Part shown: piece after piece, positions 940 to 12,629 of the stretch | Layout of the letters: every line of letters begins with the position of its first letter | How positions within the stretch are numbered: position 1 is the stretch's first letter | Source of the DNA: Candidatus Omnitrophota bacterium | GTDB lineage: Bacteria; Omnitrophota; Gorgyraeia; Gygaellales; Gygaellaceae | DNA: 19,594 nt | Assembly: GCA_041309125.1 (NCBI GenBank) | Contig: JBFZAD010000196.1 | Coordinates: forward strand, 1-19,594 | Direction: 5' to 3' | Made by a program: the position numbers and the translations under genes | Notes under the pieces: generated by a model | Seen by the model: only the letters and a program-made list of their open reading frames with translations | What the model was told of the DNA's origin: nothing | Databases searched by the model: none

Positions 940-1431
940 CTATTTATTTAAAATTTCTTCAAGCTCTATGTCTCTTTCAATATAATCCTTTAACCTTTCT
1001 TTTAACTCTGCTCTAATTTTCAACCTTAACTCATCTTTATTCCTGCTTTGTTCATCTATCCTATTCTTATACAACTCATTATGCTCGTATTTATAGTTTT
1101 CTATGGCAGCTCCCGGCAATCTAAATGGGCCGGTAATAATTTTACCGAAGTCACTTAGGTTTGACAAAGCGTCATCGTATATCCTGCCCATTGATTTATA
1201 GTATTCATTTACCATGGCTTTGCGTCTCTTAAAACGAACTCTGGCAAGCTCTTTGTCGCTGGGCGCATTATTCTCTGTATCAATTGTATATTCTGGTATA
1301 ACCAGACCATGTCTTCTTATAAGATAGCCTCCGTTATAACCTTTTTTTGCAAGTTCATACCTATAGGCAGAACAACCAGAAGCAATACAAATAAAAATAA
1401 CTAAGAAACAATATCTGGATCTTGATAGCAT
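940..1431 (-). CDS. Hypothetical lipoprotein with a charged, coiled-coil-like C-terminus
   Basis: 163-aa ORF. The N-terminus MLSRSRYCFLVIFICIASGCSAY has a lipobox-like IASG|C. The C-terminal third is rich in K, E and R. No obvious Shine-Dalgarno precedes the ATG. Confidence 0.55.
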   Translation of the reverse strand: MLSRSRYCFLVIFICIASGCSAYRYELAKKGYNGGYLIRRHGLVIPEYTIDTENNAPSDKELARVRFKRRKAMVNEYYKSMGRIYDDALSNLSDFGKIITGPFRLPGAAIENYKYEHNELYKNRIDEQSRNKDELRLKIRAELKERLKDYIERDIELEEILNK

Positions 1432-1444
1432 TTACAAAAAGGCT

Positions 1445-1579
1445 TTAAATATCTTTCTTTATTTCACATAGAATCTCTTCAAGCTTGTTATATATTTTCT
1501 TTAAGAGATCAGTCTGTTCTTGTTGAAACCTATCTTGTCTTTCCTGAAGCTGCTTTGCCTCTGTGGCTAACTTAGCCAT
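1445..1579 (-). CDS. Candidate small protein (44 aa), predicted helical or coiled-coil
   Basis: My own translation is MAKLATEAKQLQERQDRFQQEQTDLLKKIYNKLEEILCEIKKDI followed by a stop. An AAGGA lies about 10 nt upstream of the ATG. The ORF fills the gap between the GT-C gene stop (1599) and the lipoprotein start (1431). It is apparently too short for the supplied track (shortest listed ORF is 60 aa). Confidence 0.3.
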   Translation of the reverse strand: MAKLATEAKQLQERQDRFQQEQTDLLKKIYNKLEEILCEIKKDI

Positions 1580-1598
1580 ATTGCCTAAGTCCTTAAAG

Positions 1599-3098
1599 TT
1601 AAAATCCATCCAACTCTCCTTCTTTTTTTAAAATTTCTCTTATTGTATCTTTTTGTTTTTCTTCATGCATATTAGCCGCTGGAATATTTAATGCGGCTTT
1701 CCATATCTGAATCGCTTTTTCTTTCTGATTTATATTATAATATGCATGTGCAAGATTAAAATAGGCAAGAAACAATGCCTTTGACTTTAATCTAATTGAA
1801 GTCTCATATTCTCTGATTGCTAAATTATATATTTTTGCATCCATATAAGCACATCCTAAATTATAATGAAGCCTTGCAGCCATCTTTTCAGGTGTTTGTA
1901 GTATCGTATATTTATATAATATTATCTCATCATGCCAGACCATATTCTGTAACCTTGTAAGCTCAGAATATCCAAATATTAAAGTAAAAAATAATAAAAC
2001 GCTTAATATCTTTAATAACTTGGAGAAAGTAAATATTTTTAAAATTAAGATAGCCTCTATAACAAAAAAACCTACGCTAGGCAGATAAAGCCAGTGCTCC
2101 GCAATCAAAGCATTTATAGGAACTATAATATTGACTACAGGTATCAATCCCAAGAAAAACCATAAACTTGCAAAGAATAAAATCTTTTTTCTCTTATAAA
2201 AGCGAACGGTCAAGATAAATATTAAAATAAGCAATAACAGAGATTTAATTATCCTTGGGTCTGTGAATATTTTTGCTAATTCTATATCTCTTTCTATATG
2301 AAGACCGATAGGAAAAATTAATATATATATATATTCGGCTAGGATTGATGGCAGATTAAGTAATCTATACCCAAAAACAACAGGGAATGGATCTTTTTGA
2401 ATAATCTTTAAGATATTAATTCTAAAAAACGTATAACCCAAGATAACAATAAAAAATAGAAAGAAATATTTTTTTAAAAATACTCTTCCATCCCTAAAAA
2501 CAAAAAAGTAAAGACATATCAAAAAAGGAGTTATCAGATATGTCTCTTTGCTTAAGATTGATATTACGAATGATAAGCCACAAAGGATATAAGTTACCGG
2601 ATTTTGTTTTTTTCTAATAGCAAGAATAAAACAAATTAATGCAAAAAAGAAGGCAATTAAATCTGCTCTGCCTGATATATAGGTAACAGCCTGCGTGTGC
2701 ACAGGATGGCACACAAACAGACTGCTTGCAATAAAAGCAATCCTATAGTCACTAAATATGATCTTTAGCAAGAAGAATAACAATATAGCATTACCCACAT
2801 GGAACAGAGTATTTGTAAAGTGGTATCCTATGGGTGGAATTTTAAGATTATAAAGAAAGTAGTCAATCATGAGGCTTAGAGACACAAATGGCCTGTAATA
2901 ACTACTCATGCTTACATCATAATATAAATCATGTTTAAAAATATGAAATATATTCTTAAAAGATTTTATGCCTTCGTTTTGAATAATAAGCAAATAATCA
3001 TCATATACAAATAGATTGTTAAAGGAGTTTAAATAAGTCAAAAATCCAATAACAAATATTGCTAAGACCGCCAAAAGATTTATGCTTTTTGATTCCAT
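1599..3098 (-). CDS. GT-C fold polytopic membrane glycosyltransferase with C-terminal TPR repeats (TMTC/PMT_2-like)
   Basis: The ORF has many hydrophobic helices. An N-terminal FVYDDY motif follows the first TM helix, matching the acidic DD/DE motif of GT-C enzymes. The C-terminus carries TPR-like repeats (YNLGCAYMDAKIYNLAIREYETSI..., FNLAHAYYNINQKEKAIQIWKAAL). I prefer the start at ATG 3098 (MESKSINLL...); the track start at 3155 would overlap the upstream gene by 76 nt. Confidence 0.75.
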   Translation of the reverse strand: MESKSINLLAVLAIFVIGFLTYLNSFNNLFVYDDYLLIIQNEGIKSFKNIFHIFKHDLYYDVSMSSYYRPFVSLSLMIDYFLYNLKIPPIGYHFTNTLFHVGNAILLFFLLKIIFSDYRIAFIASSLFVCHPVHTQAVTYISGRADLIAFFFALICFILAIRKKQNPVTYILCGLSFVISILSKETYLITPFLICLYFFVFRDGRVFLKKYFFLFFIVILGYTFFRINILKIIQKDPFPVVFGYRLLNLPSILAEYIYILIFPIGLHIERDIELAKIFTDPRIIKSLLLLILIFILTVRFYKRKKILFFASLWFFLGLIPVVNIIVPINALIAEHWLYLPSVGFFVIEAILILKIFTFSKLLKILSVLLFFTLIFGYSELTRLQNMVWHDEIILYKYTILQTPEKMAARLHYNLGCAYMDAKIYNLAIREYETSIRLKSKALFLAYFNLAHAYYNINQKEKAIQIWKAALNIPAANMHEEKQKDTIREILKKEGELDGF

Positions 3099-3481
3099 AA
3101 AATTATTATTCGTTTTATAAAAATAAAATATCCTATTATTACACTTATTATACAAGCAAACAGCACTGCTGCTGCAGACATATCCTTGATAACTTTGACT
3201 GCAGGATGAAATTTCTTGTCTGTAATCAGATTTGTTATATCTTCAACCATAGTATTAAAGATTTCACTCACAAATACAAGGCCAATAGTCAATAAAACAA
3301 CTGTCATTTCAAAGGTGCTTATTTTAAAGGCTACTCCGCATAAGATTGCAATTATTGAAAAGAATACTATAAGCTGGGCATTGTGGTGGTTTATAAAGAT
3401 ATTTAAAAGACCTTCTAAGGCGCATAAGAAACTTTTAATCAAGCGTTTATGGTGGACCGTTTGTTTTATTTTTCTTAGCAT
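3080..3481 (-). CDS. dgkA: Diacylglycerol kinase / undecaprenol kinase family small membrane protein (DgkA family)
   Basis: 133 aa with three hydrophobic helices. It has the DgkA-like motifs SEIFNTMVEDITNL and KVIKDMSAAAVL. Its ATG lies 2 nt after the folE stop. Confidence 0.8.
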   Translation of the reverse strand: MLRKIKQTVHHKRLIKSFLCALEGLLNIFINHHNAQLIVFFSIIAILCGVAFKISTFEMTVVLLTIGLVFVSEIFNTMVEDITNLITDKKFHPAVKVIKDMSAAAVLFACIISVIIGYFIFIKRIIILWNQKA

Positions 3482-3483
3482 TA

Positions 3484-4041
3484 TTAACCTTTGATTAATG
3501 CAAGCGTCTCTGAGCGCGTCTTCTCATTTTCCTTAAAAATACCTCTTACGGCTGAAGTTGTAGTAACCGTGCCTGGCTTTTTTACTCCGCGCATTGACAT
3601 GCAAAGATGCTCTGCCTCAATAACAACCATTACTCCAAGGGGTTTAAGCTTTTCCATGATTATCTCAGCAATCTGTGTAGTGAGCCTCTCCTGAACTTGT
3701 GGCCTTTTTGATAATATATCAACGACCCTGGCAATCTTGCTTAGACCAGTTACCCTGCCGCCTTTTGGTATGTAGGCAATATGCGCCCTGCCTAAAAACG
3801 GCAGTAGGTGATGTTCGCAGCAACTGTAAAGGGGTATATTTTTCAGGAGAACTATCTCCTCGTGTTTCTGATCCAAAATAACCTCTAATTCTTTTCTCGG
3901 ATCTTGTTTTATCCCGGCGAATATCTCCTCATACATCTCTGCCACCCTCCTAGGCGTTTCCAGCAAATCCCGACGTTTAGTATCCTCTCCGATTGCCTCT
4001 AAGATCATCCTTACTGCTCTCTCAATTTTCTTTTTATCCAT
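3484..4041 (-). CDS. folE: GTP cyclohydrolase I (FolE type 1)
   Basis: 185 aa with the hallmark [10 protein letters not shown] zinc/active-site motif, the GLSK.AR segment, QVQERLT and [15 protein letters not shown] lies 5 nt upstream of the ATG. Confidence 0.95.
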
Positions 4042-4062
4042 TCTATCTCCTCATGACTAACC

Positions 4063-4080
4063 CTGCCTGCCGGCAGGCAG
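4063..4080. repeat. 18-nt perfect GC-rich palindrome CTGCCTGCCGGCAGGCAG in the mnmE-folE spacer
   Basis: Read directly: CTGCCTGCC is the reverse complement of GGCAGGCAG. As RNA it could form a 7-bp stem with a CCGG loop. No U-tract follows on the transcribed minus strand. Confidence 0.85.
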
Positions 4081-4094
4081 ACACCAAACACCAA
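4081..4094. repeat. Tandem heptamer ACACCAA x2 (TTGGTGT x2 in gene sense), ending 2 nt from the mnmE stop codon
   Basis: Read directly: acaccaa acaccaa at 4081-4094, directly next to the palindrome. Confidence 0.8.
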
Positions 4095-4096
4095 AT

Positions 4097-5545
4097 CTAT
4101 TTCCCTATGCAAAACTCACTAAATATTCTATCCAACACCTCATCCGAAACAGTTTGACCCGTAATTTCACCCAGGCTCTCAATAGCTAATTTTACATCTA
4201 AAGCAACAAATTCCCAAGACAATTTTTGCCTTAAACTATCAACTGACCTAGCGATTGATTCTTCTGATTTCTTCAATGATTCTATATGCCTGGCATTGCT
4301 TACGATAATACTTTGCGTATTTATAATCTTGCCATGCCAAATCTTTTTTATGATTTCATTTTCTAAATCACCGAGCCCTATATTTCTTGTTGCAGATAGT
4401 CTGATTATCTTTTTAAATTTTTTCTTTAATAGATTAACCTCTATCTTTAATGGTAGGTCAACCTTATTAATAACTACAATAAGTTCTTTGTCCCCAGAAA
4501 GTTTAATTATCTGTTTATCTTGGTTGCTGATTTTCTTACTGCCGTCAAATATCAATAATACTAAATTTGCTTCCTTTAAATATCTTAAGCTGCGCGATAT
4601 AGCCTCTTTTTCAATTATATCCTTTGGCTCAATAATTCCTGCCGTGTCGACAAAGCGTAGTGGCACTCCCTTAATATCAACAAACTCTTCAATGACATCG
4701 CGGGTTGTCCCGGCAATTGGAGTTACAATTGCCCTCTCTTCACGTAAAAGCATATTCAATAGAGAAGATTTACCTACATTTGGCTTGCCACAGATAACAA
4801 CATTAATTCCCTCTCTTAAAATCTTGCCTTCGTTTGAGTTATGAAGGATCGAGATAATTTTGGATTTTAAATTTTTAAGCATTTTCTTTATCTCTTTATA
4901 TGATAGGCTGCTATTATCCTCATCAGGAAAATCAATATTTGCCTCTATTTGAGTCAAGATATCTAGCAGCAATCCTCTTAGAACATTAATCTCTTTTGAT
5001 AGCCTTCCCCTTAATTGATCCAGGCCTAATTGTAGTCCCATGTCTGTCTTTGAGCTCACAATATCTAAAACAGCCTCTGCCTGAGTAAGATCTATTCTGC
5101 CGTTTATAAAGGCGCGCTGGGTAAACTCGCCAGGACGGGCGAGCCTTGCACCATTTGACAAGACTAAATCTAGAATATTTTTTAAAGGAACAATCCCTGA
5201 ATGACAGTTTATCTCAACTATATCTTCGCGCGTGTATGTATGCGGCGCCCTCATTACCGTCACCAGCACCTCGTCAATAATGTTGCGTAGTGCGTAGTGC
5301 GTAGTGCGTACAGCGTTTTCTTTCGACGCACGACGCACGACGCACGACGCACGACGATTAATAATCCAGCCATAATTTGTAGAATAGTTCCTAGCCTTGC
5401 TTAAACTTCTTGCCTTTGCCGATTTAAAAATCCTATCTACAATCTTGATGGCGTCTTTGCCGCTAACCTTAACGATGCCGATTCCGCCTTCCCCTATCGG
5501 AGTCGAGATAGCAACGATTGTATCGTGTAAATCTAATTCAGACAT
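4097..5545 (-). CDS. mnmE: tRNA modification GTPase MnmE (TrmE)
   Basis: The N-terminus is DTIVAISTP.GEGGIGIV. The G-domain has GKPNVGKSSLLN, TPIAGTTRD and DTAGI. The C-terminus ends in the hallmark FCIGK. The ATG overlaps the folC stop by 13 nt. Confidence 0.95.
   Translation of the reverse strand: MSELDLHDTIVAISTPIGEGGIGIVKVSGKDAIKIVDRIFKSAKARSLSKARNYSTNYGWIINRRASCVVRRASKENAVRTTHYALRNIIDEVLVTVMRAPHTYTREDIVEINCHSGIVPLKNILDLVLSNGARLARPGEFTQRAFINGRIDLTQAEAVLDIVSSKTDMGLQLGLDQLRGRLSKEINVLRGLLLDILTQIEANIDFPDEDNSSLSYKEIKKMLKNLKSKIISILHNSNEGKILREGINVVICGKPNVGKSSLLNMLLREERAIVTPIAGTTRDVIEEFVDIKGVPLRFVDTAGIIEPKDIIEKEAISRSLRYLKEANLVLLIFDGSKKISNQDKQIIKLSGDKELIVVINKVDLPLKIEVNLLKKKFKKIIRLSATRNIGLGDLENEIIKKIWHGKIINTQSIIVSNARHIESLKKSEESIARSVDSLRQKLSWEFVALDVKLAIESLGEITGQTVSDEVLDRIFSEFCIGK
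5284..5356. repeat. Inverted pair of heptamer arrays inside mnmE: (TGCGTAG)x3+TGCGTAC, a 12-nt spacer, then (CGACGCA)x4+CGACG
   Basis: Read directly. Arm 5284-5311 and arm 5324-5351 are complementary at 23 of 28 positions, with one A/G mismatch per unit. In frame they encode NRRASCVVRRASKENAVRTTHYALRN. Confidence 0.9.
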
Positions 5546-6954
5546 AGCTTACGTGCCTCTGCTGTAACATAAAGAGAGCCTGTGATTAAAATCAAACTCT
5601 CTTTATTATTATATCTTTTAGTAAGATTTAATGCGCTGGCAACATCTTTTGTAGTATGAAATTCAGACAAAACTTCATTATTAAGGCCACCCAGTGATTT
5701 TAATATAAATTTTGTGCTTGCTGCCCTTGGATTTTTTGATTTTGTAAGAATAATATTCTTACAAATTGGGAATAACTCATTGGCAATTGATTTTATATCC
5801 TTATCTTTGGCTGCGCCAAAAATTAGATTGATACCTATTCTTGAGAATCTTTCTATCAGGGTAGTCTTCAACGCTCTTGCCGAAGCTTGGTTCTGTGCGC
5901 CATCTATTATTATTAAAGGCTTGCGGGAGATTATTTCAAACCGTGAAGGCCACTTTGTGTTTAGTAATCCTTTTCGAATTTTATTTTCTCTGACATTTAT
6001 ACTCTGTTCTTTTAGGGCCTCAATAACACCAATCGCTACAGAGGCATTAATAATCTGATGAAAACCGAGAAATGGAATCTTAACTTTTTTATAATTATTA
6101 AATTTAGAATAGAAATTAAAGGTCTCTCCTGCGCTATCAAAATCCGTTCTCTCAAATAAGATATCTTCACCTATTTCGTACAACTTTGCATTTTTATCCT
6201 TACATCTTTTTTTAATTACTTCTCCTGCAATATCTTCTTGCGGTGCACTAATCACGCATAGCTGTGGCCTGTGGCCTGTGGCCTGTGGCCTTCTTTTTAT
6301 AATTCCAGCCTTTTCCTTTGTAATTCTTTCCAAAGTGCCACCTAATATCGCAGTATGTTCATAGCTAATAGGAGTGAGCGCAGAAACGAGCGGATTCACA
6401 GTATTAGTTGCATCGAGCCTTCCCCCTAAACCAGTTTCTAGCACAACAAAATCAACTTCTTTTTCTAGAAAATACAAAAACGCCAAAGCAGTAAGCACTT
6501 CAAAAAAAGTTAAATTATAATCTTTTTTTCTTCTTTTTATCTCATCTATCCCTATTTTCAATTTTCTCATCAAGTTTGTAAAATCATCGCAGGAAATCAT
6601 TCCTTCAAAATCTGACTGAAGCCTGTGGCCTGTGGCCTGAAGCATGTGGCCTGAAGCCTGTGGCCCAGAAGATAAGATCCTTATCCTCTCTCTAAAATCA
6701 TTCAAATGCGGCGATGTATATAGTCCTACCCTATATCCCGCTTCGCGCAAAATATATGCAATGAATGCACAGGTTGAACCCTTGCCTTTAGTTCCAGCTA
6801 CATGAATACATTCAAGTCTTTCTTGTGGATTCCCAATGAAGTTCAAAAAATATTTGAAGCGACTTAAATCAAATGAGGTTTTATACGGATAGGACGATAT
6901 CTTCTCGTAATCAATGAAGGAATTTAAATAAGATATTGCTTTTTGGAAAGTCAA
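5533..6954 (-). CDS. folC: Bifunctional folylpolyglutamate synthase / dihydrofolate synthase (FolC, Mur-ligase family)
   Basis: P-loop HVAGTKGKGST, SPHL..F.ERI, ETGLGGRLDATN, ISYEHT and DGAQN motifs are all present. Confidence 0.9.
   Translation of the reverse strand: MTFQKAISYLNSFIDYEKISSYPYKTSFDLSRFKYFLNFIGNPQERLECIHVAGTKGKGSTCAFIAYILREAGYRVGLYTSPHLNDFRERIRILSSGPQASGHMLQATGHRLQSDFEGMISCDDFTNLMRKLKIGIDEIKRRKKDYNLTFFEVLTALAFLYFLEKEVDFVVLETGLGGRLDATNTVNPLVSALTPISYEHTAILGGTLERITKEKAGIIKRRPQATGHRPQLCVISAPQEDIAGEVIKKRCKDKNAKLYEIGEDILFERTDFDSAGETFNFYSKFNNYKKVKIPFLGFHQIINASVAIGVIEALKEQSINVRENKIRKGLLNTKWPSRFEIISRKPLIIIDGAQNQASARALKTTLIERFSRIGINLIFGAAKDKDIKSIANELFPICKNIILTKSKNPRAASTKFILKSLGGLNNEVLSEFHTTKDVASALNLTKRYNNKESLILITGSLYVTAEARKLCLN
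6262..6290. repeat. Tandem heptamer (CTGTGGC)x4 inside folC (GCCACAG in gene sense)
   Basis: Read directly: four perfect units at 6262-6289 plus one base. In frame they encode RRPQATGHRPQ. Confidence 0.9.
6616..6664. repeat. Tandem heptamer array of 7 units inside folC: CTGAAGC CTGTGGC CTGTGGC CTGAAGC ATGTGGC CTGAAGC CTGTGGC
   Basis: Read directly. In frame it encodes GPQASGHMLQATGHRLQ. It uses the same core unit as the 6262-6290 array, mixed with a CTGAAGC variant. Confidence 0.9.
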
Positions 6955-6964
6955 AACCTATACC

Positions 6965-8536
6965 TTAATGCCTAAAATGCCTAAATCCTGTTGCCACCAT
7001 AGGAATATTGTACTTATTGCACACCTTTACAATTTCATCATCTGCGATTGAGCCACCTGGTTGGATTACGGCCTTTATGCCATTTCTTATGGCTAGGCTA
7101 ATTGCATCTGCTTTTGGAAAGAATGCATCTGAGGCAAGACAAGCACCTTTAGTCTTAGCCTTTCCCCCGGCCTTTTTTACTGAAATATATACTGAATCAA
7201 CTCTGCTCATCTGTCCTGCACCTATACCAATAGTCTTTGTGCCCTTTGTAAGTATTATGGCATTAGACTTAACATGCTTTGCTATCTTCCATGCAAATAT
7301 CAAAGAATCCATTTGTGCCTTTGTCGGCTTCTTTTCTGTCATTACCTTTAGATTATTTACATCTAAGGTAACTAAATCCTTATCTTGAAGAAGCGCTCCT
7401 CCTGAAACTGTACGAAAGTCCAATTTCTGATTCCTAGACGTATCAAAATCACAAGAAAGTATCCTTAAATTTTTCTTATCTTTTAAAATCTTAAGCGCTC
7501 CTTCTTCATATCCAGGCGCAATAATACATTCTAAGAATCCGCTTCTTGATATTGCCTTTGCAGTATCCACATCAACTTTCCTGTTTAAACCGACTATTCC
7601 TCCAAAAGCAGACAGCTTATCGCAACCCCAAGCCTCAATGTATGCCTTTTTTAATGTCTTTGATTCGCTCGCTCCGCAAGGATTATTGTGCTTTAATATA
7701 ACCGCTGCAGGCCCCTCAAACTCTCTGACTAAATCAAATGCCGAGTTAAGGTCAAGAATATTATTAAATGAAAGCTCTTTGCCGTGCAATTGCTTGCATG
7801 ACGCAAGGCCATAATCTGCCGATGCATCTTTATAAAAAGCGCCTTTCTGATGAGGATTCTCTCCATAGCGTAAAGGCTGAAGCCTTTCGTACTCAAGTCT
7901 TAAAAATCTAGGGAATGCACTTTTCTGTTCGGAATCTTTTTTATCTGCGGCATTCTTTAGAAACTCATAAATTGCAGCATCATAATGTGAAGTCTTCTTA
8001 AAAACTTCAACTCCAAGAGAAACCAATGTCTCATCAGAAAGCGAACAGTTGTTTTTCTTTAATTCCAGGAGGATTGCATCGTATCTTTCGGGATTACTTA
8101 TGACTGCCACCGACCTAGAGTTTTTGGCAGCAGAACGCAACATTGACGGACCGCCTATATCTATATTCTCAATTGCCTCATGCAATGTGACATCAGGCTT
8201 TTTTATAACGCTCTCAAATGGATAGAGATTCACAACAACCATATCAATAAGCCCAATTCCATGATTCTGGATTTGTCTCATATGTTCTTTGTTGTCTCTT
8301 AAAGCCAATAGGCCGGCATGGATCCTTGGATGTAATGTCTTTACCCTTCCATCCAGCATTTCAGGAAAACCAGTATATTCTGAAACATCCTTAACAGGAA
8401 TTTTATTCTGTCTTAATGATTTGGCGGTGCCGCCCGTTGAAAGAATTTCTACTCCAAGACTACTTAAACCTGCTGCAAAATCTATAATTCCCGCTTTGTC
8501 AGACACGCTGATCAGCGCACGTTTTACCTTTAGCAT
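6965..8536 (-). CDS. purH: Bifunctional AICAR transformylase / IMP cyclohydrolase (PurH)
   Basis: 523 aa. The N-terminal MGS-like domain reads KRALISVSDKAGI..FA..L...GVEILSTGGTAK and GRVKTLHP.IH.G. The C-terminus reads SDAFFPF-like (SDAFFPKADAI) and ends TGFRHFRH. Confidence 0.95.
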   Translation of the reverse strand: MLKVKRALISVSDKAGIIDFAAGLSSLGVEILSTGGTAKSLRQNKIPVKDVSEYTGFPEMLDGRVKTLHPRIHAGLLALRDNKEHMRQIQNHGIGLIDMVVVNLYPFESVIKKPDVTLHEAIENIDIGGPSMLRSAAKNSRSVAVISNPERYDAILLELKKNNCSLSDETLVSLGVEVFKKTSHYDAAIYEFLKNAADKKDSEQKSAFPRFLRLEYERLQPLRYGENPHQKGAFYKDASADYGLASCKQLHGKELSFNNILDLNSAFDLVREFEGPAAVILKHNNPCGASESKTLKKAYIEAWGCDKLSAFGGIVGLNRKVDVDTAKAISRSGFLECIIAPGYEEGALKILKDKKNLRILSCDFDTSRNQKLDFRTVSGGALLQDKDLVTLDVNNLKVMTEKKPTKAQMDSLIFAWKIAKHVKSNAIILTKGTKTIGIGAGQMSRVDSVYISVKKAGGKAKTKGACLASDAFFPKADAISLAIRNGIKAVIQPGGSIADDEIVKVCNKYNIPMVATGFRHFRH

Positions 8537-8553
8537 TTCATCTCTCCCCGATA

Positions 8554-9252
8554 TTATTTATTGAATCTGAAATTAAGCCAATCTGCATCCTTAACAATAT
8601 ATTCTTTATCCTCAAGCCGCATTAAATTCTGCGCCTTTGCCTCATTAACCCCGCCTGATTTAACTAAATCTTCATAGCTAATTACCTCTGCCCGGATAAA
8701 ACCCTTTTGTATTGTAGAATGAATCTTTCCGGCTGCCTCATAACATGTTGTGCCATATTTTACACACCAGGCGCGGGCTTCTTTTGAACCTACTGTAGTA
8801 AAAAATGAGATATGTCCAAACTCTTTATACGCATTTAATAGGATATCTTCAATATTTGAGATATCTGAACCTATAATATAAACTGGTTTTAAAGTTATAA
8901 GATTATACCCAAGTATATCCTTCGGTAAATCATCCTGAAGGACACATTTAGAAAGTATATTGTCCTTTTCCAATTCCTCTTTTAGCCTTGAAATTTTTGA
9001 TATCTTGTCCTGATCAGCGGCCGAAGCGAGTAATTTTTCTACAGACTCTAAATCCTCTATTATTAAATCCGTCTTTTTCTCTTGCGAGCATATTATGGCA
9101 TCTGCCTCAGAAATTCTTGCGCTATCAATTAATTCAAGTTGGATATATGTCTGACCAGGACACTTGGTCAATTCTTTTACCTTATCCAGGCGTTCATCTT
9201 TAAGATTTGTCTTGCCCTGTTTGTATTCTATTCCTATTATGGCTATCTTCAT
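8554..9252 (-). CDS. YchF-like protein with a degenerate G-domain and an intact C-terminal YchF/TGS-like (DUF933) domain
   Basis: The C-terminus ARAWCVKYGTTCYEAAGKIHSTIQKGFIRAEVISYEDL...YIVKDADWLNFRFNK closely parallels the YchF C-terminal domain. The protein is only 232 aa. The P-loop position reads GIEYKQGKT instead of G.PNVGKST, and the switch II position reads LIDSA instead of D.AGLV. Confidence 0.7.
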   Translation of the reverse strand: MKIAIIGIEYKQGKTNLKDERLDKVKELTKCPGQTYIQLELIDSARISEADAIICSQEKKTDLIIEDLESVEKLLASAADQDKISKISRLKEELEKDNILSKCVLQDDLPKDILGYNLITLKPVYIIGSDISNIEDILLNAYKEFGHISFFTTVGSKEARAWCVKYGTTCYEAAGKIHSTIQKGFIRAEVISYEDLVKSGGVNEAKAQNLMRLEDKEYIVKDADWLNFRFNK

Positions 9253-9275
9253 TAGTCCTTTTTTTTAGGTTAGTA

Positions 9276-11222
9276 TTATTCTTCTGCCTTTTTGTCCACC
9301 TGATTCTTAGCTATAATCTCCTGCATAATTTTATGCGGAACTTCTTCGTAATGGGAAAACTTCATGGTAAAGGAACCTCTGCCTCCTGTCATAGAGCGCA
9401 GGTCATTTGCATATTTAAACATCTCTGCCAAAGGCACCTGGGCCTTGACCACCTGGTTTCTTCCTCTTGAATCCATACCCATAATCCTGCCGCGCCTTGA
9501 ATTTAAATCTCCTGAAATCTGGCCCATAAATTCTTCAGATATGAGTATCTCTACATCCATAATCGGCTCAAGCAATGCCGGGCCTGCCTCAAGCACGGCC
9601 TTACGCAATGCCATGGAACCTGCAATTTGAAAGGCCATATCAGAAGAATCAACCGGATGAAAAGAACCATCATACAGGATTACCTTAACGCTCACCAAAG
9701 GATAGCCTGCCAGGGCTCCTTCTGTCATTGCCTGTCTAACTCCCTTCTCGACAGAGGGAATATAGTTTTTAGGTATTGCACCTCCGAATATCTTGTCTAC
9801 AAATTCAAACTCTGCATCCTTTGGCAAGGGTTCTATCTCTAGCCATACATCTCCGTATTGACCACGGCCTCCGGATTGTCGTTTATACTTACCTTGGACC
9901 TTGGCGCCCTTCTTTATAGTCTCTTTATAAGGTATCTTGGGAGTACCAAGATCAACATCTACGTTAAATCTTTTCTTCATCCTGGCCACCATAACATCAA
10001 GATGTAGCGCTCCTAGGCCCGATACTATTAATTCCTTTGTCTGCAGGTCTCGGCTTACCTTAAATGTATGGTCTTCGCTGCTCAATTTTGAGAGCGCGCT
10101 TGATATCTTTTCTTCATCATGCCTTGACTTTGGCTTTATAGATTCTGAAAAACATGATTCTGGTAATGTAGTCTCAAGGTAAATAAGGCCTGAGTTATCT
10201 TCAGCCAATGAATCATTGGTTGATGTATCCTTTAATTTTGACAGCGCTACAATATCTCCGCATACAGCCTCAGTGACTGCAACCTGTTCCTTCCCCTGCA
10301 ACAGATAAATTGAACCGATTCTTTCTTTTAAATCCTTGTTTATATTATAAAATCCTGTACCAGAGATCAACTTTCCTGCAAATATCCTTATTATGCTAAG
10401 TTGCCCGACGTAAGGGTCTGATATGCTCTTAAATACAAAAGCAGAAAAAGGCTTATCAGGCCCATATACCAATAGTTTTTCTTCTTTGTTTCTGTTTGTC
10501 AATTTTAACTGCGGCCTCTCAAGAGGAGAAGGAAGAAATTTAACTATTGCATCAAATAATTCTTCTATGCCCTTATCTTGAAGACAAGAACCAAATATCA
10601 CAGGAAAAAGCTTCGCATTTTGGACCGCCTTATGAAGGCCCAGTTTTATCTCTTCTTCTGAAAGACTCGCGCCTTCTAAGTATTTCTCAAGCAAGGCATC
10701 ATCCGCTTCGCAAACTGCCTCGATTAAAGACGGATCATTAAGAGATACTAAATGAAATATATTCTTCCCAAAACATTCCCTTAATTCCTCAAGCGTCTTA
10801 TCGGCATTAGTATTTTCTTTGTCTAATTTATTTATAAAAAATATCCTGGCTAAATTATTTTTGTTCAATAACTCCCAGTCCCTTTCTGTACCAACCTCAA
10901 CTCCGGTTACGGCATCTATTACTACAATTGCGCTATCTACGCCAGCACAAGAAGAGATAACCTCTCCTTCAAAATCTGCATAGCCAGGGGTATCAATAAC
11001 CTGAATTGCATATTCTTTAATTTTAAAATTAAGGAAGCTGCTGCTTATAGAGATTTTTCTTTCTATTTCATCCTCGCTGTAGTCACTGACGGTATTGCCC
11101 TCCGGCACAGTTCCTTTGCGGCTTATAGCGCCTGCCTTAAAAAGCATGCATTCCGAAAGGGAGGTCTTACCGCTATGGGCATGGCCAACTAAAATAATAT
11201 TCCTTTTTAGATTTATATCCAT
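9276..11222 (-). CDS. Elongation factor G family GTPase, EF-G2-like paralogue
   Basis: 648 aa. G1 is VGHAHSGKTSL, G2 is GNTVSDY..DEIER, and G3 is DTPGYADF. The NKLD motif is present, and domain IV/V-like segments include GGRGQYG. The short length and the HAHSGKT and PGYADF variants resemble Thermus-type EF-G2 rather than canonical FusA. GGAGAGGA lies upstream of the ATG. Confidence 0.85.
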   Translation of the reverse strand: MDINLKRNIILVGHAHSGKTSLSECMLFKAGAISRKGTVPEGNTVSDYSEDEIERKISISSSFLNFKIKEYAIQVIDTPGYADFEGEVISSCAGVDSAIVVIDAVTGVEVGTERDWELLNKNNLARIFFINKLDKENTNADKTLEELRECFGKNIFHLVSLNDPSLIEAVCEADDALLEKYLEGASLSEEEIKLGLHKAVQNAKLFPVIFGSCLQDKGIEELFDAIVKFLPSPLERPQLKLTNRNKEEKLLVYGPDKPFSAFVFKSISDPYVGQLSIIRIFAGKLISGTGFYNINKDLKERIGSIYLLQGKEQVAVTEAVCGDIVALSKLKDTSTNDSLAEDNSGLIYLETTLPESCFSESIKPKSRHDEEKISSALSKLSSEDHTFKVSRDLQTKELIVSGLGALHLDVMVARMKKRFNVDVDLGTPKIPYKETIKKGAKVQGKYKRQSGGRGQYGDVWLEIEPLPKDAEFEFVDKIFGGAIPKNYIPSVEKGVRQAMTEGALAGYPLVSVKVILYDGSFHPVDSSDMAFQIAGSMALRKAVLEAGPALLEPIMDVEILISEEFMGQISGDLNSRRGRIMGMDSRGRNQVVKAQVPLAEMFKYANDLRSMTGGRGSFTMKFSHYEEVPHKIMQEIIAKNQVDKKAEE

Positions 11223-11286
11223 GGCTATTATCCTCTCCGTACTATTATTTTTTGTATTATTTGGGGGTTATGCTCCAAGAGAGTTT

Positions 11287-11315
11287 ATTATATGAAAAAA
11301 ATTAAAGGGCGTCAA
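11287..11315 (-). promoter_or_regulatory. Sigma70-type promoter: TTGACG, 17 nt, TATAAT, upstream of the EF-G2-like gene
   Basis: On the minus strand the -35 TTGACG is at 11315-11310 and the -10 TATAAT at 11292-11287, with an exact 17-nt spacer. It lies about 65 nt upstream of the ATG at 11222. Confidence 0.55.
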
Positions 11316-11409
11316 GGAATATCACAGTTGTTTCTAACTGCTATGGTTTAAGTGGGTTTTATGCCAGATTTGAAATTATATAGGCTTGTTAATTAAAAGA
11401 TGGGTAAAC

Positions 11410-12612
11410 CTACTCAAGATAGGTATAAATCTTTCCCTTGTAGTTACGTATTGTGTATCTACTCTTGGCTTGAGACAAGAGATAACTAGGCCCAATAGGC
11501 ACCTTACCGCCTCCACCAGGTGCATCTATGACATAGACTGGCACTGCATAACCAGAGGTATGGCCTCTTAGCTTTTCAATAATATTAATCCCTGTAGAAA
11601 CAGGAGTTCGAAAATGAGAAGTACCCTTTACTGGATCACACTGATAGATATAATATGGCCTCACTCGTATCTTAAGCAGCTCGTGCATGAGTTTTCGCAT
11701 AATATAAGGCTTGTCATTAATGCCTTTTAAGAGAACGGTCTGGCTACCCAAAGGAAATCCGTTATCTGCAAGCATATCACAGGCCAATCTTGAGCGCTTT
11801 GTGATCTCGCGCGGGTGATTGAAATGAATGCTTATCCATATAGGAGCATATTTCTTGAGCATGGTGACTAGATTTTCAGTTATTCTCTGTGGGAGTGTCA
11901 CAGGCACACGCGTACCTATTCTTAAAAATTCTATATGAGGTATACTCCTTATATTTTTAACAATTTCCTCAAGTACATCATCTTCAAGCATCAATGGATC
12001 TCCGCCAGAGATTAAAACATCCCGTACCTTCTTATTTGATCTTAGATATTCATAGGCATCATCTAATTTATTAGCACCTATGGTCTGCCTCTTTTCGCCA
12101 ACCAGTCTTCTTCTGGTACAGTGCCTGCAGTAGGTGGCACAATTCTCTGTTGCCAATAATAAAACTCTGTCCGGATATCTATGAACAAGACTTAAGGCCG
12201 GCGAATCCTTATCTTCTCCGCAAGGGTCACTCATCTCTTGAGTAGAAAAATGAAATTCTGATTCAGTTGGTACTGCCTGACGTCTTATAGGGCATTTAGA
12301 ATCATACGGGTCCATCAAGGTTGCAAAGTAAGGAGTAATTGCTATGGAAAGCCTGCCATTACATCTTTTGATGGCCTTCTCTTCTGCCGGTGTAAGTAAA
12401 ATAATCTCGCTCAATTCATCCTTTTTAGTAATTCTATTTTTTATCTGCCAATGCCAATCCTCCCACTCTAAGGGATTTACATCTTTAAAAAGACTTGTTG
12501 AACGGTAATCTATAGGAAAATAGATTCTCTTCGGTTTTATTATCGGGACATCCTGTTTAAGCAATTGAATCTTCTCGCTGACAATCTCCTGGGTGTTATT
12601 AAGCTGTGGCAA
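11410..12612 (-). CDS. kamA: KamA-family radical SAM, PLP-dependent aminomutase (lysine 2,3-aminomutase-like)
   Basis: It has the CATYCRHC radical-SAM CX3CX2C motif and the N-terminal WEDWHWQIKNRI motif. SGGDPL, YIYQCD and IDAPGGGGK (PLP lysine) are also present. The start is TTG, preceded by GGAGGAG. Confidence 0.9.
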   Translation of the reverse strand: MPQLNNTQEIVSEKIQLLKQDVPIIKPKRIYFPIDYRSTSLFKDVNPLEWEDWHWQIKNRITKKDELSEIILLTPAEEKAIKRCNGRLSIAITPYFATLMDPYDSKCPIRRQAVPTESEFHFSTQEMSDPCGEDKDSPALSLVHRYPDRVLLLATENCATYCRHCTRRRLVGEKRQTIGANKLDDAYEYLRSNKKVRDVLISGGDPLMLEDDVLEEIVKNIRSIPHIEFLRIGTRVPVTLPQRITENLVTMLKKYAPIWISIHFNHPREITKRSRLACDMLADNGFPLGSQTVLLKGINDKPYIMRKLMHELLKIRVRPYYIYQCDPVKGTSHFRTPVSTGINIIEKLRGHTSGYAVPVYVIDAPGGGGKVPIGPSYLLSQAKSRYTIRNYKGKIYTYLE

Positions 12613-12629
12613 CTAATCTCCTCCTTGTT

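Follow-up and report, generated by a model that had tools for sequence, protein, structure and literature searches.

What allows a tandem array of seven-nucleotide units, a length that is not a multiple of three, to reside inside the reading frame of a housekeeping gene? This question is raised by folC, the gene for folylpolyglutamate/dihydrofolate synthase, on contig JBFZAD010000196.1 of a Candidatus Omnitrophota bacterium (GCA_041309125.1). The window that we analysed is this entire 19.6-kb contig (19,594 nt), and the source genome is represented by that one contig. The folC gene, located on the minus strand at 5533-6954, carries two such arrays, one at 6616-6664 (site 1) and one at 6262-6291 (site 2). 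Both are in-frame arrays at hot spots that occupy orthologous positions in related FolC proteins, where segment lengths are quantised, unit numbers are polymorphic and units are shared between sites. From these observations we infer that slippage and conversion are the molecular mechanisms and that the encoded peptides are neutral. Altogether, we consider it probable, though well short of certain, that the arrays are in-frame hypermutable heptanucleotide microsatellites in tolerant FolC loops, which are shaped by slippage and by copying between arrays.

On the plus strand, positions 6616-6664 consist of seven abutting heptamers, namely CTGAAGC, CTGTGGC, CTGTGGC, CTGAAGC, ATGTGGC, CTGAAGC and CTGTGGC. 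A sequence-only reading of this DNA had listed the same units, and both the plus-strand sequence and the translation of the open reading frame confirmed them. On the coding strand the units of this imperfect array read GCCACAG, GCTTCAG and GCCACAT. The array lies within coding sequence, and in the minus-strand open reading frame of 473 codons the translation across it is ...ERIRILSSGPQASGHMLQATGHRLQSDFEGMIS... / ...SPHLNDFRERIRILSSGPQASGHMLQATGHRLQSDFEGMIS..., of which GPQASGHMLQATGHRLQ is encoded by the array in the first hot-spot loop of FolC, flanked by ERIRIL and FEGMIS. The site-2 array, also on the minus strand, is perfect and comprises 30 nt, or 4.3 units of GCCACAG on the coding strand. 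It encodes PQATGHRPQ in the second hot-spot loop, between AGIIK and VISAPQ. The view that the two arrays are built on the same core unit was borne out as well. The unit dimer CTGTGGCCTGTGGC, with at most two mismatches allowed, occurs seven times in the window and exclusively within the two folC arrays, whereas 0.04 occurrences were expected from 200 shuffles, none of which ever reached seven. The unit that the two sites share is the sole long dispersed direct repeat in the window. In contrast, the proposal that the variant units of the site-1 array mark it as older or diverged found no support. Tandem Repeats Finder described 6616-6664 as 6.4 copies of a 7-nt period with 73% matches, as 2.5 copies of a 14-nt period with 95% matches and as 2.1 copies of a 21-nt period with 87% matches, and the two longer periods indicate a higher-order 14/21-nt structure. 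Since the array contains three identical GCTTCAG units and matches the 14-nt period at 95%, it is indicative of duplications in a 14-nt register and not of simple decay with age. The window site 1 is therefore better read as an in-frame expansion by 21 nt, which yields 21 amino acids compared to the common 14.

When exact tandem arrays of at least 2.5 units were searched in the window for unit lengths of 5-12 nt, only period 7 was found. The four arrays with this period are located at 5284-5310, 5324-5356, 6262-6291 and 6621-6639, the last of which is the core of the 6616-6664 array. Besides the period-7 arrays, the window holds only three 10-nt runs of period 4. The heptamer arrays have a G+C content of 56-74%, as compared to 37% for the window, and all four strong arrays are inside open reading frames, showing no preference for intergenic DNA.

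The assignment of the host gene is based on homologues, Pfam matches and PDB matches. Its product of 473 amino acids contains Mur_ligase_M and Mur_ligase_C (Pfam E-values 6.9e-15 and 2.5e-12, respectively) and a P-loop, and it is homologous to solved FolC/FPGS structures with a best E-value of 6.6e-57 for 1o5z, the FolC of T. maritima; it thus belongs to the FolC / Mur-ligase family. The site-1 array had been placed in the loop after SPHL..F.ERI, and this agrees with the structural comparison. Residues 94-118 of the query FolC have no counterpart in T. maritima 1o5z (chain 98-102). An AlphaFold2 model built on 52 homologues was of high overall confidence and reached a predicted local distance difference test (pLDDT) value of 87.8 and a predicted template modelling score (pTM) of 0.90, while residues 99-113 were predicted with a pLDDT below 50 and the block 221-230 with a mean of 68. 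For comparison with outgroups we used the FolC sequences of other phyla among the matches listed in a metagenome scan for FolC relatives, most of which belonged to such phyla. At site 1 these proteins have merely DG or NG between ER(I/V)x(V/I) and the following strand, and at site 2 merely PG or SG between GIIK and xPVVxxPQ. On the basis of the gap in 1o5z, the short outgroup spacers and the low pLDDT values, both array-encoded segments are probably lineage-specific, disordered loops between conserved secondary-structure elements. An HMMER alignment that paired PQATGHR at site 2 with PLVTGER of T. maritima was rejected as spurious, because the outgroups show GIIK-PG-xPVV..PQ and because the Omnitrophota strand IVISAPQ follows after the array.

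The two sites proved to be hypervariable in related proteins. We aligned the 120 closest FolC proteins, with identities of at most 54%, which are Candidatus Omnitrophica or Omnitrophota wherever the source gives a name. In this alignment the flanks ERIRIL / FEGMIS and AGIIK / IVISAPQE were almost invariant, and most of the homologues had a hypervariable, length-variable segment at both sites. No conserved residue was found within either segment across the 120 homologues, and a sequence-specific functional loop peptide was rejected on these grounds. About 40% of the segments per site displayed a clear internal periodicity, mostly of 7 or 8 amino acids, as in SHKPQATSHKP, RRPSSVVRRPS, AQSSKLKAQSS and KCQSVKVSKCQ.

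The lengths of these segments were quantised. At site 2 they amounted to 4 amino acids in 16 proteins, 11 in 43 and 12 in 29, followed by 18-20 amino acids and a tail, and none of the ~110 homologues counted had a length between 6 and 10 amino acids. The site-1 lengths peaked at 12, 14 and 15 amino acids, and the 21 amino acids of the window FolC equal 14 + 7. The quantisation at site 2 is explained by frame preservation, as a base of 4 amino acids is extended by three 7-nt units (7 amino acids) or three 8-nt units (8 amino acids). With 7-nt units, only changes by three units keep FolC in frame, and this rule accounts for the quantised lengths, for the prevalence of about four units and for the seven units in the window. 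The seven-unit array at site 1 fits the next in-frame state after four units.

At the DNA level, we inspected syntenic loci of ~20 kb (ddl-ddl-LAM-fusA-ychF-purH-folC-mnmE-folE) from eight relatives. In most of these, the hypervariable peptides were encoded by near-perfect 7- or 8-nt tandem arrays with genome-specific units. For sites 1 and 2, respectively, the arrays were (AGCCACA)4.9 and (GTCACAG)4.3 in L201, (AGTGTCAA)4.0 and (AAGGTGTC)4.6 in L202, (GACAGGC)5.3 and (GCCGCCA)4.1 in L124, and (AGCTCCA)4.6 and (AAAAGGC)4.6 in L206; L123 had no array at site 1 and (AAAACGC)4.7 at site 2. The L201 FolC is 53% identical to the window FolC, and its units differ by about one base from the window unit GCCACAG at both sites, from which it follows that the shared unit family was probably inherited. 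Many site-2 units start within the conserved Lys codon of GIIK and therefore resemble a local duplication and not a foreign insertion. Across the sampled Omnitrophota FolCs, the units at the folC sites were consistently 7 or 8 nt long and never a multiple of three. Arrays were present at the same FolC sites in many independent assemblies from NCBI, JGI and ENA, and period-7 arrays were rare in the loci of other phyla among the matches listed in the metagenome scan. Clear 7-8-nt arrays of about three or more units were confined, within the ~20-kb loci, to folC (sites 1 and 2, and occasionally a third site), to one loop of mnmE (YGWI / IDEV) and to inverted pairs in spacers. At site 2 of L121 (FolC residues ~237-270) a G+C-rich tandem duplication of ~42 nt, which encodes PSPSLGTPFGRT / PFPRLRSGFPSVAR, replaces the short-unit array, which shows that the hot spots accept other kinds of repeat as well.

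The comparison of close relatives comprised 20 clusters of FolC proteins with at least 90% identity. All internal indels in these clusters, of 1, 7, 7, 10 and 18 amino acids, were located at site 1 or site 2. The orthologous arrays of relatives were also polymorphic in unit number. Specifically, L205 (a 76.6-kb contig) lacks one AAAAGGC unit of the site-2 array that is present in six strains (L206-L211). Over the 1.4-kb folC region there was no other difference between these sequences, except for a single-nucleotide polymorphism that is private to L211, and over 6.6 kb the deletion of one AAAAGGC was the only difference between L205 and L206. The loss of this unit splits folC into open reading frames of 219 and 221 amino acids. 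In a second lineage, L213 differs from P0015 by a frameshift within the site-1 repeat, where L213 appears to have three copies of TCCCTGCCTG versus four, the latter number being deduced from the P0015 protein. Both frameshift alleles were recovered from metagenome assemblies and are probably real, since the length of the arrays is well below the assembler k-mer of 141 that the contig names (k141) indicate.

Some further cases were set aside. P0157 was rejected as a third frameshift allele, as its scaffold gap (a run of N) is positioned exactly at site 1. L212 (GCA_964545575.1, CAZJFL010000007.1) has a run of N at ~1300-1400, exactly at FolC site 1, and its annotated FolC is a fragment of 289 amino acids. 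On the contig that carries P0158 and P0159 (1456 bp, ENA; P0092/L203 cluster), one open reading frame ends at site 1 and another starts at site 2, and ~370 nt between two near-identical repeat composites are apparently missing. Recombination between the direct repeats may have deleted this segment, or else the assembly may have taken a path through the shared repeat, as is conceivable for a contig of just 1.5 kb; the case was excluded from the evidence.

Sharing of units between arrays is not limited to the window. Sites 1 and 2 of L203 have a common composite of ~70 nt, in which two array segments enclose a 26-nt palindrome. Its copies at the two sites are near-identical apart from one different base in the palindrome. 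The site-1 unit of L202 is found again in an intergenic hairpin at a distance of 5.4 kb, and in L204 14-20-mers are common to folC site 2, folC site 3 and the mnmE site. The window has the same unit at two loci, and in relatives 2-4 sites within 20 kb have units of one family. At least two tripeptides were common to both hot-spot loops of one protein in 11 of the 120 homologues, as compared to a mean of 1.9 and a maximum of 8 for permuted pairs (2000 permutations). An identical unit at both sites, as in the window, is thus a minority state, yet significantly enriched. The sequence-only reading had favoured an active process over chance, and this is supported by the restriction of internal indels in closely related FolCs to the two sites, by the natural single-unit deletion in L205 and by the excess of sharing. 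Overall, its interpretation was partly upheld: the unit family is shared, but the events are not peculiar to this genome, as most related FolCs have the same hot spots.

The CTGTGGC unit as such is non-specific. A contig scan for (CTGTGGC)3 in a genome collection listed at least 120 loci with three or more units, and the matches listed were all from unrelated, mostly high-GC genomes. The taxa among these matches included Acidobacteriota, Streptomyces, a Thermoleophilaceae metagenome-assembled genome (MAG), Myxococcales and Treponema. Among the matches listed, (CTGTGGC)n was present on many contigs of single genomes, such as Thermoleophilaceae SMAG_U9019 (~13 contigs), Myxococcales HKST-UBA02 (7 contigs), Acidobacteriaceae MFD09294 (6 contigs) and several Treponema MAGs. 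Judged from these matches, genome-specific dispersed heptamer families seem to be widespread. Heptameric simple sequence repeats (SSRs) are known to be over-represented in bacteria, with GGGAATC in Xanthomonas, GGGGA(C/T)T in Nostoc and the short tandemly repeated repetitive (STRR) heptamers of Calothrix as examples, and such dispersed families occupy many loci, prefer about four units and occasionally form inverted pairs capable of stem-loop formation (PMC4692102). The Omnitrophota arrays resemble these families in their genome-specific units, in the number of about four units and in the occasional inverted pairs. However, the repeats of Xanthomonas, Nostoc and Calothrix are rich in G, form quadruplexes and lie mostly between genes, being under-represented in coding sequences (PMC4692102), whereas the arrays described here are translated in frame and occupy loop positions that are orthologous between genomes.

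In related Omnitrophota, 7- or 8-nt arrays are thus found at three hot spots, namely at two fixed loops in folC and at one in mnmE. According to the model that we infer, replication slippage would gain and lose units, and point mutations would spread along an array via further slippage. Occasional gene conversion or template switching would copy sequence between arrays, and such copying would explain the presence of the same unit at both folC sites in the window. In some genomes, a small palindromic element would insert into the arrays. Changes by a single unit result in frameshifted, presumably null, folC alleles, examples of which are present in natural populations. The surviving alleles are those with about 1, 4 or 7 units, where site 2 of the window represents the four-unit state and site 1 the seven-unit state, and the encoded peptide would be a tolerated filler without conserved sequence.

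Slippage with occasional conversion between arrays explains most of the observations, but several points weigh against it. Slippage alone leaves the dominance of 7- and 8-nt units and the absence of units that are multiples of three unexplained. It also does not account for the way in which the state of 4 amino acids would regain an array without frameshifted intermediates, nor for the fact that near-perfect arrays have been kept across the whole phylum. These gaps point to an extra ingredient. It may lie in biased mutation, in the copying of whole blocks from another array, or in selection. In addition, the frameshift alleles, although probably real, come from metagenome assemblies only, and with one contig of the source genome the instability of the window's own array is extrapolated from its relatives. 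The explanatory gaps therefore leave room for either a selected switch function or a mobile element of the hairpin type.

A switch function would imply that the non-triplet arrays of folC and mnmE are contingency loci, selected because they heritably and reversibly turn folate polyglutamylation and tRNA modification ON and OFF. The unit length of always 7 or 8 nt, and never a multiple of three, at the sampled Omnitrophota FolC sites would be in agreement with this idea, as would the persistence of near-perfect arrays across 50% protein divergence. The two independent frameshifted alleles, each of which is the consensus of a natural population, are located exactly within the arrays, and populations of one sample series differ in their ON/OFF state while they are otherwise identical over 6.6 kb. 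There is also a precedent in the neuO gene of the E. coli K1 prophage CUS-3. Its coding (AAGACTC)n array of 3-53 units changes by strand slippage, and only unit numbers that are a multiple of three, one of the three repeat-number classes, give full-length protein and turn the gene ON (PMC13001214). Like the FolC arrays, neuO has a translated heptanucleotide tandem array within an open reading frame. However, neuO is an accessory gene for capsule modification that is carried by a phage, its array is located at the 5′ end, and its switching was shown experimentally. The FolC arrays, in contrast, have 4-7 units and are found in internal loops of chromosomal housekeeping genes, at positions that are conserved among related Omnitrophota with units that vary between genomes, and their switching would be hypothetical.

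Other observations are less readily reconciled with switching. As the arrays have just 4-7 units, as opposed to the 3-53 units of neuO (PMC13001214), the expected switching rates would be modest, and the genes concerned are housekeeping genes without surface or restriction functions. Moreover, 16 of the ~110 homologues have collapsed to the array-less state of 4 amino acids, and the frameshifted alleles could be deleterious variants or pseudogenes in host-dependent cells. The reversibility, rate and phenotype of the proposed switching would all have to be argued by analogy. We therefore regard contingency loci as an unlikely explanation, albeit one that should be kept in mind. Unlikely, too, is the broader proposal of a conserved stochastic ON/OFF switch system, which would comprise the fixed loops of folC and mnmE with arrays that are replenished by inter-array copying. 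If such a system were true, subpopulations could shut down folate-dependent metabolism, for example in host-dependent or dormant phases, and contingency loci, which are familiar from surface antigens in pathogens, would then also be a feature of central metabolism in bacteria from the environment.

Alternatively, the folC arrays could be single arms or decayed copies of a small mobile element, a hairpin resembling repetitive extragenic palindromic (REP) sequences or miniature inverted-repeat transposable elements (MITEs), with arms made up of tandem 7-10-nt units. Inverted pairs of arrays that fold into long hairpins would speak for such an element. Besides folC, an orthologous hot spot for arrays exists in mnmE (4097-5545, minus strand), which encodes the tRNA-modification GTPase. 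In the window, its N-domain loop YGWII / IIDEV contains two arrays on the minus strand. The first (5324-5356) has 4.7 units of CGTCGTG on the coding strand and provides the 5′ arm of a hairpin. The second (5284-5310) has 3.9 units of TACGCAC on the coding strand, is nearly the reverse complement of the first and provides the 3′ arm. The two arrays are 13 nt apart, and the hairpin of ~27 bp has one mismatch per 7 nt (-38.5 kcal/mol, z -3.3). The double array is translated in frame as RRASCVVRRASKENAVRTTHYALR, and relatives have different arrays or merely 4-6 amino acids in this loop. Inverted pairs of 7-10-nt arrays were also present immediately upstream of folC, in the purH-folC spacer, of L202 (9920-10003), L201 (9912-9996), L206 (9927-9999) and L123 (536-636). 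Long hairpin folds were obtained for the L202 spacer pair (z -5.5) and for L202 15745-15822 (z -5.2).

Palindromes are a further element to be considered. The mnmE-folE spacer of the window contains a perfect 18-nt palindrome, CTGCCTGCCGGCAGGCAG, at 4063-4080, which is adjoined by a short heptamer array with 2.1 units of ACACCAA at 4081-4095. Nearly the same palindrome was found in intergenic spacers of L203 and L204, and in other genomes the FolC arrays contain its translation (PAGRQA, CLTGRQA, LPAGEAG) as a nested segment. The nested palindromes of relatives measure 21-30 nt and give rise to a presence/absence difference of 7 amino acids between near-identical FolC proteins, and in L203 an array combined with a 26-nt palindrome is present in the same form at site 1 and at site 2. 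By its appearance, CTGCCTGCCGGCAGGCAG could be a palindrome conserved in the Omnitrophota that is REP-like or a miniature mobile element.

The folC arrays of the window, however, differ from this picture. An inverted-repeat architecture is seen in the paired mnmE arrays and in the spacers of relatives but is missing from 6616-6664, and our repeat analysis of the window revealed no inverted partner, terminal repeats or target-site duplication of the folC arrays. The fold of 6616-6664 was merely moderate (-24.5 kcal/mol, z -2.9), and neither the window nor two related loci matched any family in Rfam. Also the strictly orthologous positions, the units that start in the flanking Lys codon as in a local duplication, and the drift of units by single bases between genomes at the same site argue against the insertion of an element. 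Known in-frame insertions in protein-coding genes are the Rickettsia palindromic elements of ~100-150 nt. The likeness lies in a short selfish or neutral sequence that is tolerated in frame in surface loops of housekeeping proteins, and the 21-30-nt palindrome nested in the arrays of relatives behaves in this manner. In contrast, 6616-6664 consists of tandem 7-nt units and is not a palindrome. A hairpin element thus appears to be an improbable source of the folC arrays. Finally, a frozen accident or artefact can hardly be upheld, be it a low-complexity stretch that arose by chance and is no longer changing or a mistake in the assembly: while the single contig of the source genome would allow for invariance in its lineage, the shuffled sequences (0.04 dimers expected, seven observed), the arrays at the same sites in many independent NCBI, JGI and ENA assemblies and the concentration of unit-number and indel polymorphism at both sites all contradict it.

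The immediate surroundings of the two arrays are as follows. The start of mnmE overlaps the folC stop region by 13 nt (5533-5545), and the purH-folC spacer of the window has just 10 nt, while the end of purH (6967-6985) contains a short run, (AATGCCTAA)2. All annotated genes of the window, from 940 to 19522, are on the minus strand in a folate-related cluster, the order of which is conserved in relatives: two ddl-like genes, a lysine 2,3-aminomutase-like gene, fusA, a C-terminal fragment of ychF, purH, folC, mnmE and folE.

Hypermutable SSRs and contingency-type loci are already known. The contingency loci of Haemophilus and Neisseria are described as non-triplet SSRs in reading frames, which are hot spots of indels and give rise to frameshifted alleles (PMC3315296, PMC2651432). 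Classical contingency loci with tetra-, penta- or heptanucleotide repeats are features of host-adapted pathogens, mostly affect genes for surface or restriction-modification functions and usually have many units, whereas the array-bearing genes folC and mnmE serve core metabolism and tRNA modification in uncultured bacteria that are free-living or episymbiotic. Our literature searches on Omnitrophota or Omnitrophica and repeats yielded no description of conserved in-frame non-triplet arrays in the housekeeping genes of this phylum.

Essential genes would be expected to lose non-triplet repeats, yet here such repeats have been kept at the same folC and mnmE loop positions in most related Omnitrophota FolCs. 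For the reconstruction of genomes from metagenomes, the arrays represent a hazard, since scaffolds acquire gaps and genes are called in pieces because of them. Should the arrays be simply tolerated, they would provide a clean natural case of microsatellites that are trapped by frame selection and undergo concerted evolution between arrays. If, on the other hand, they are selected, they would constitute contingency switches in the core metabolism of an uncultured and partly host-dependent phylum.

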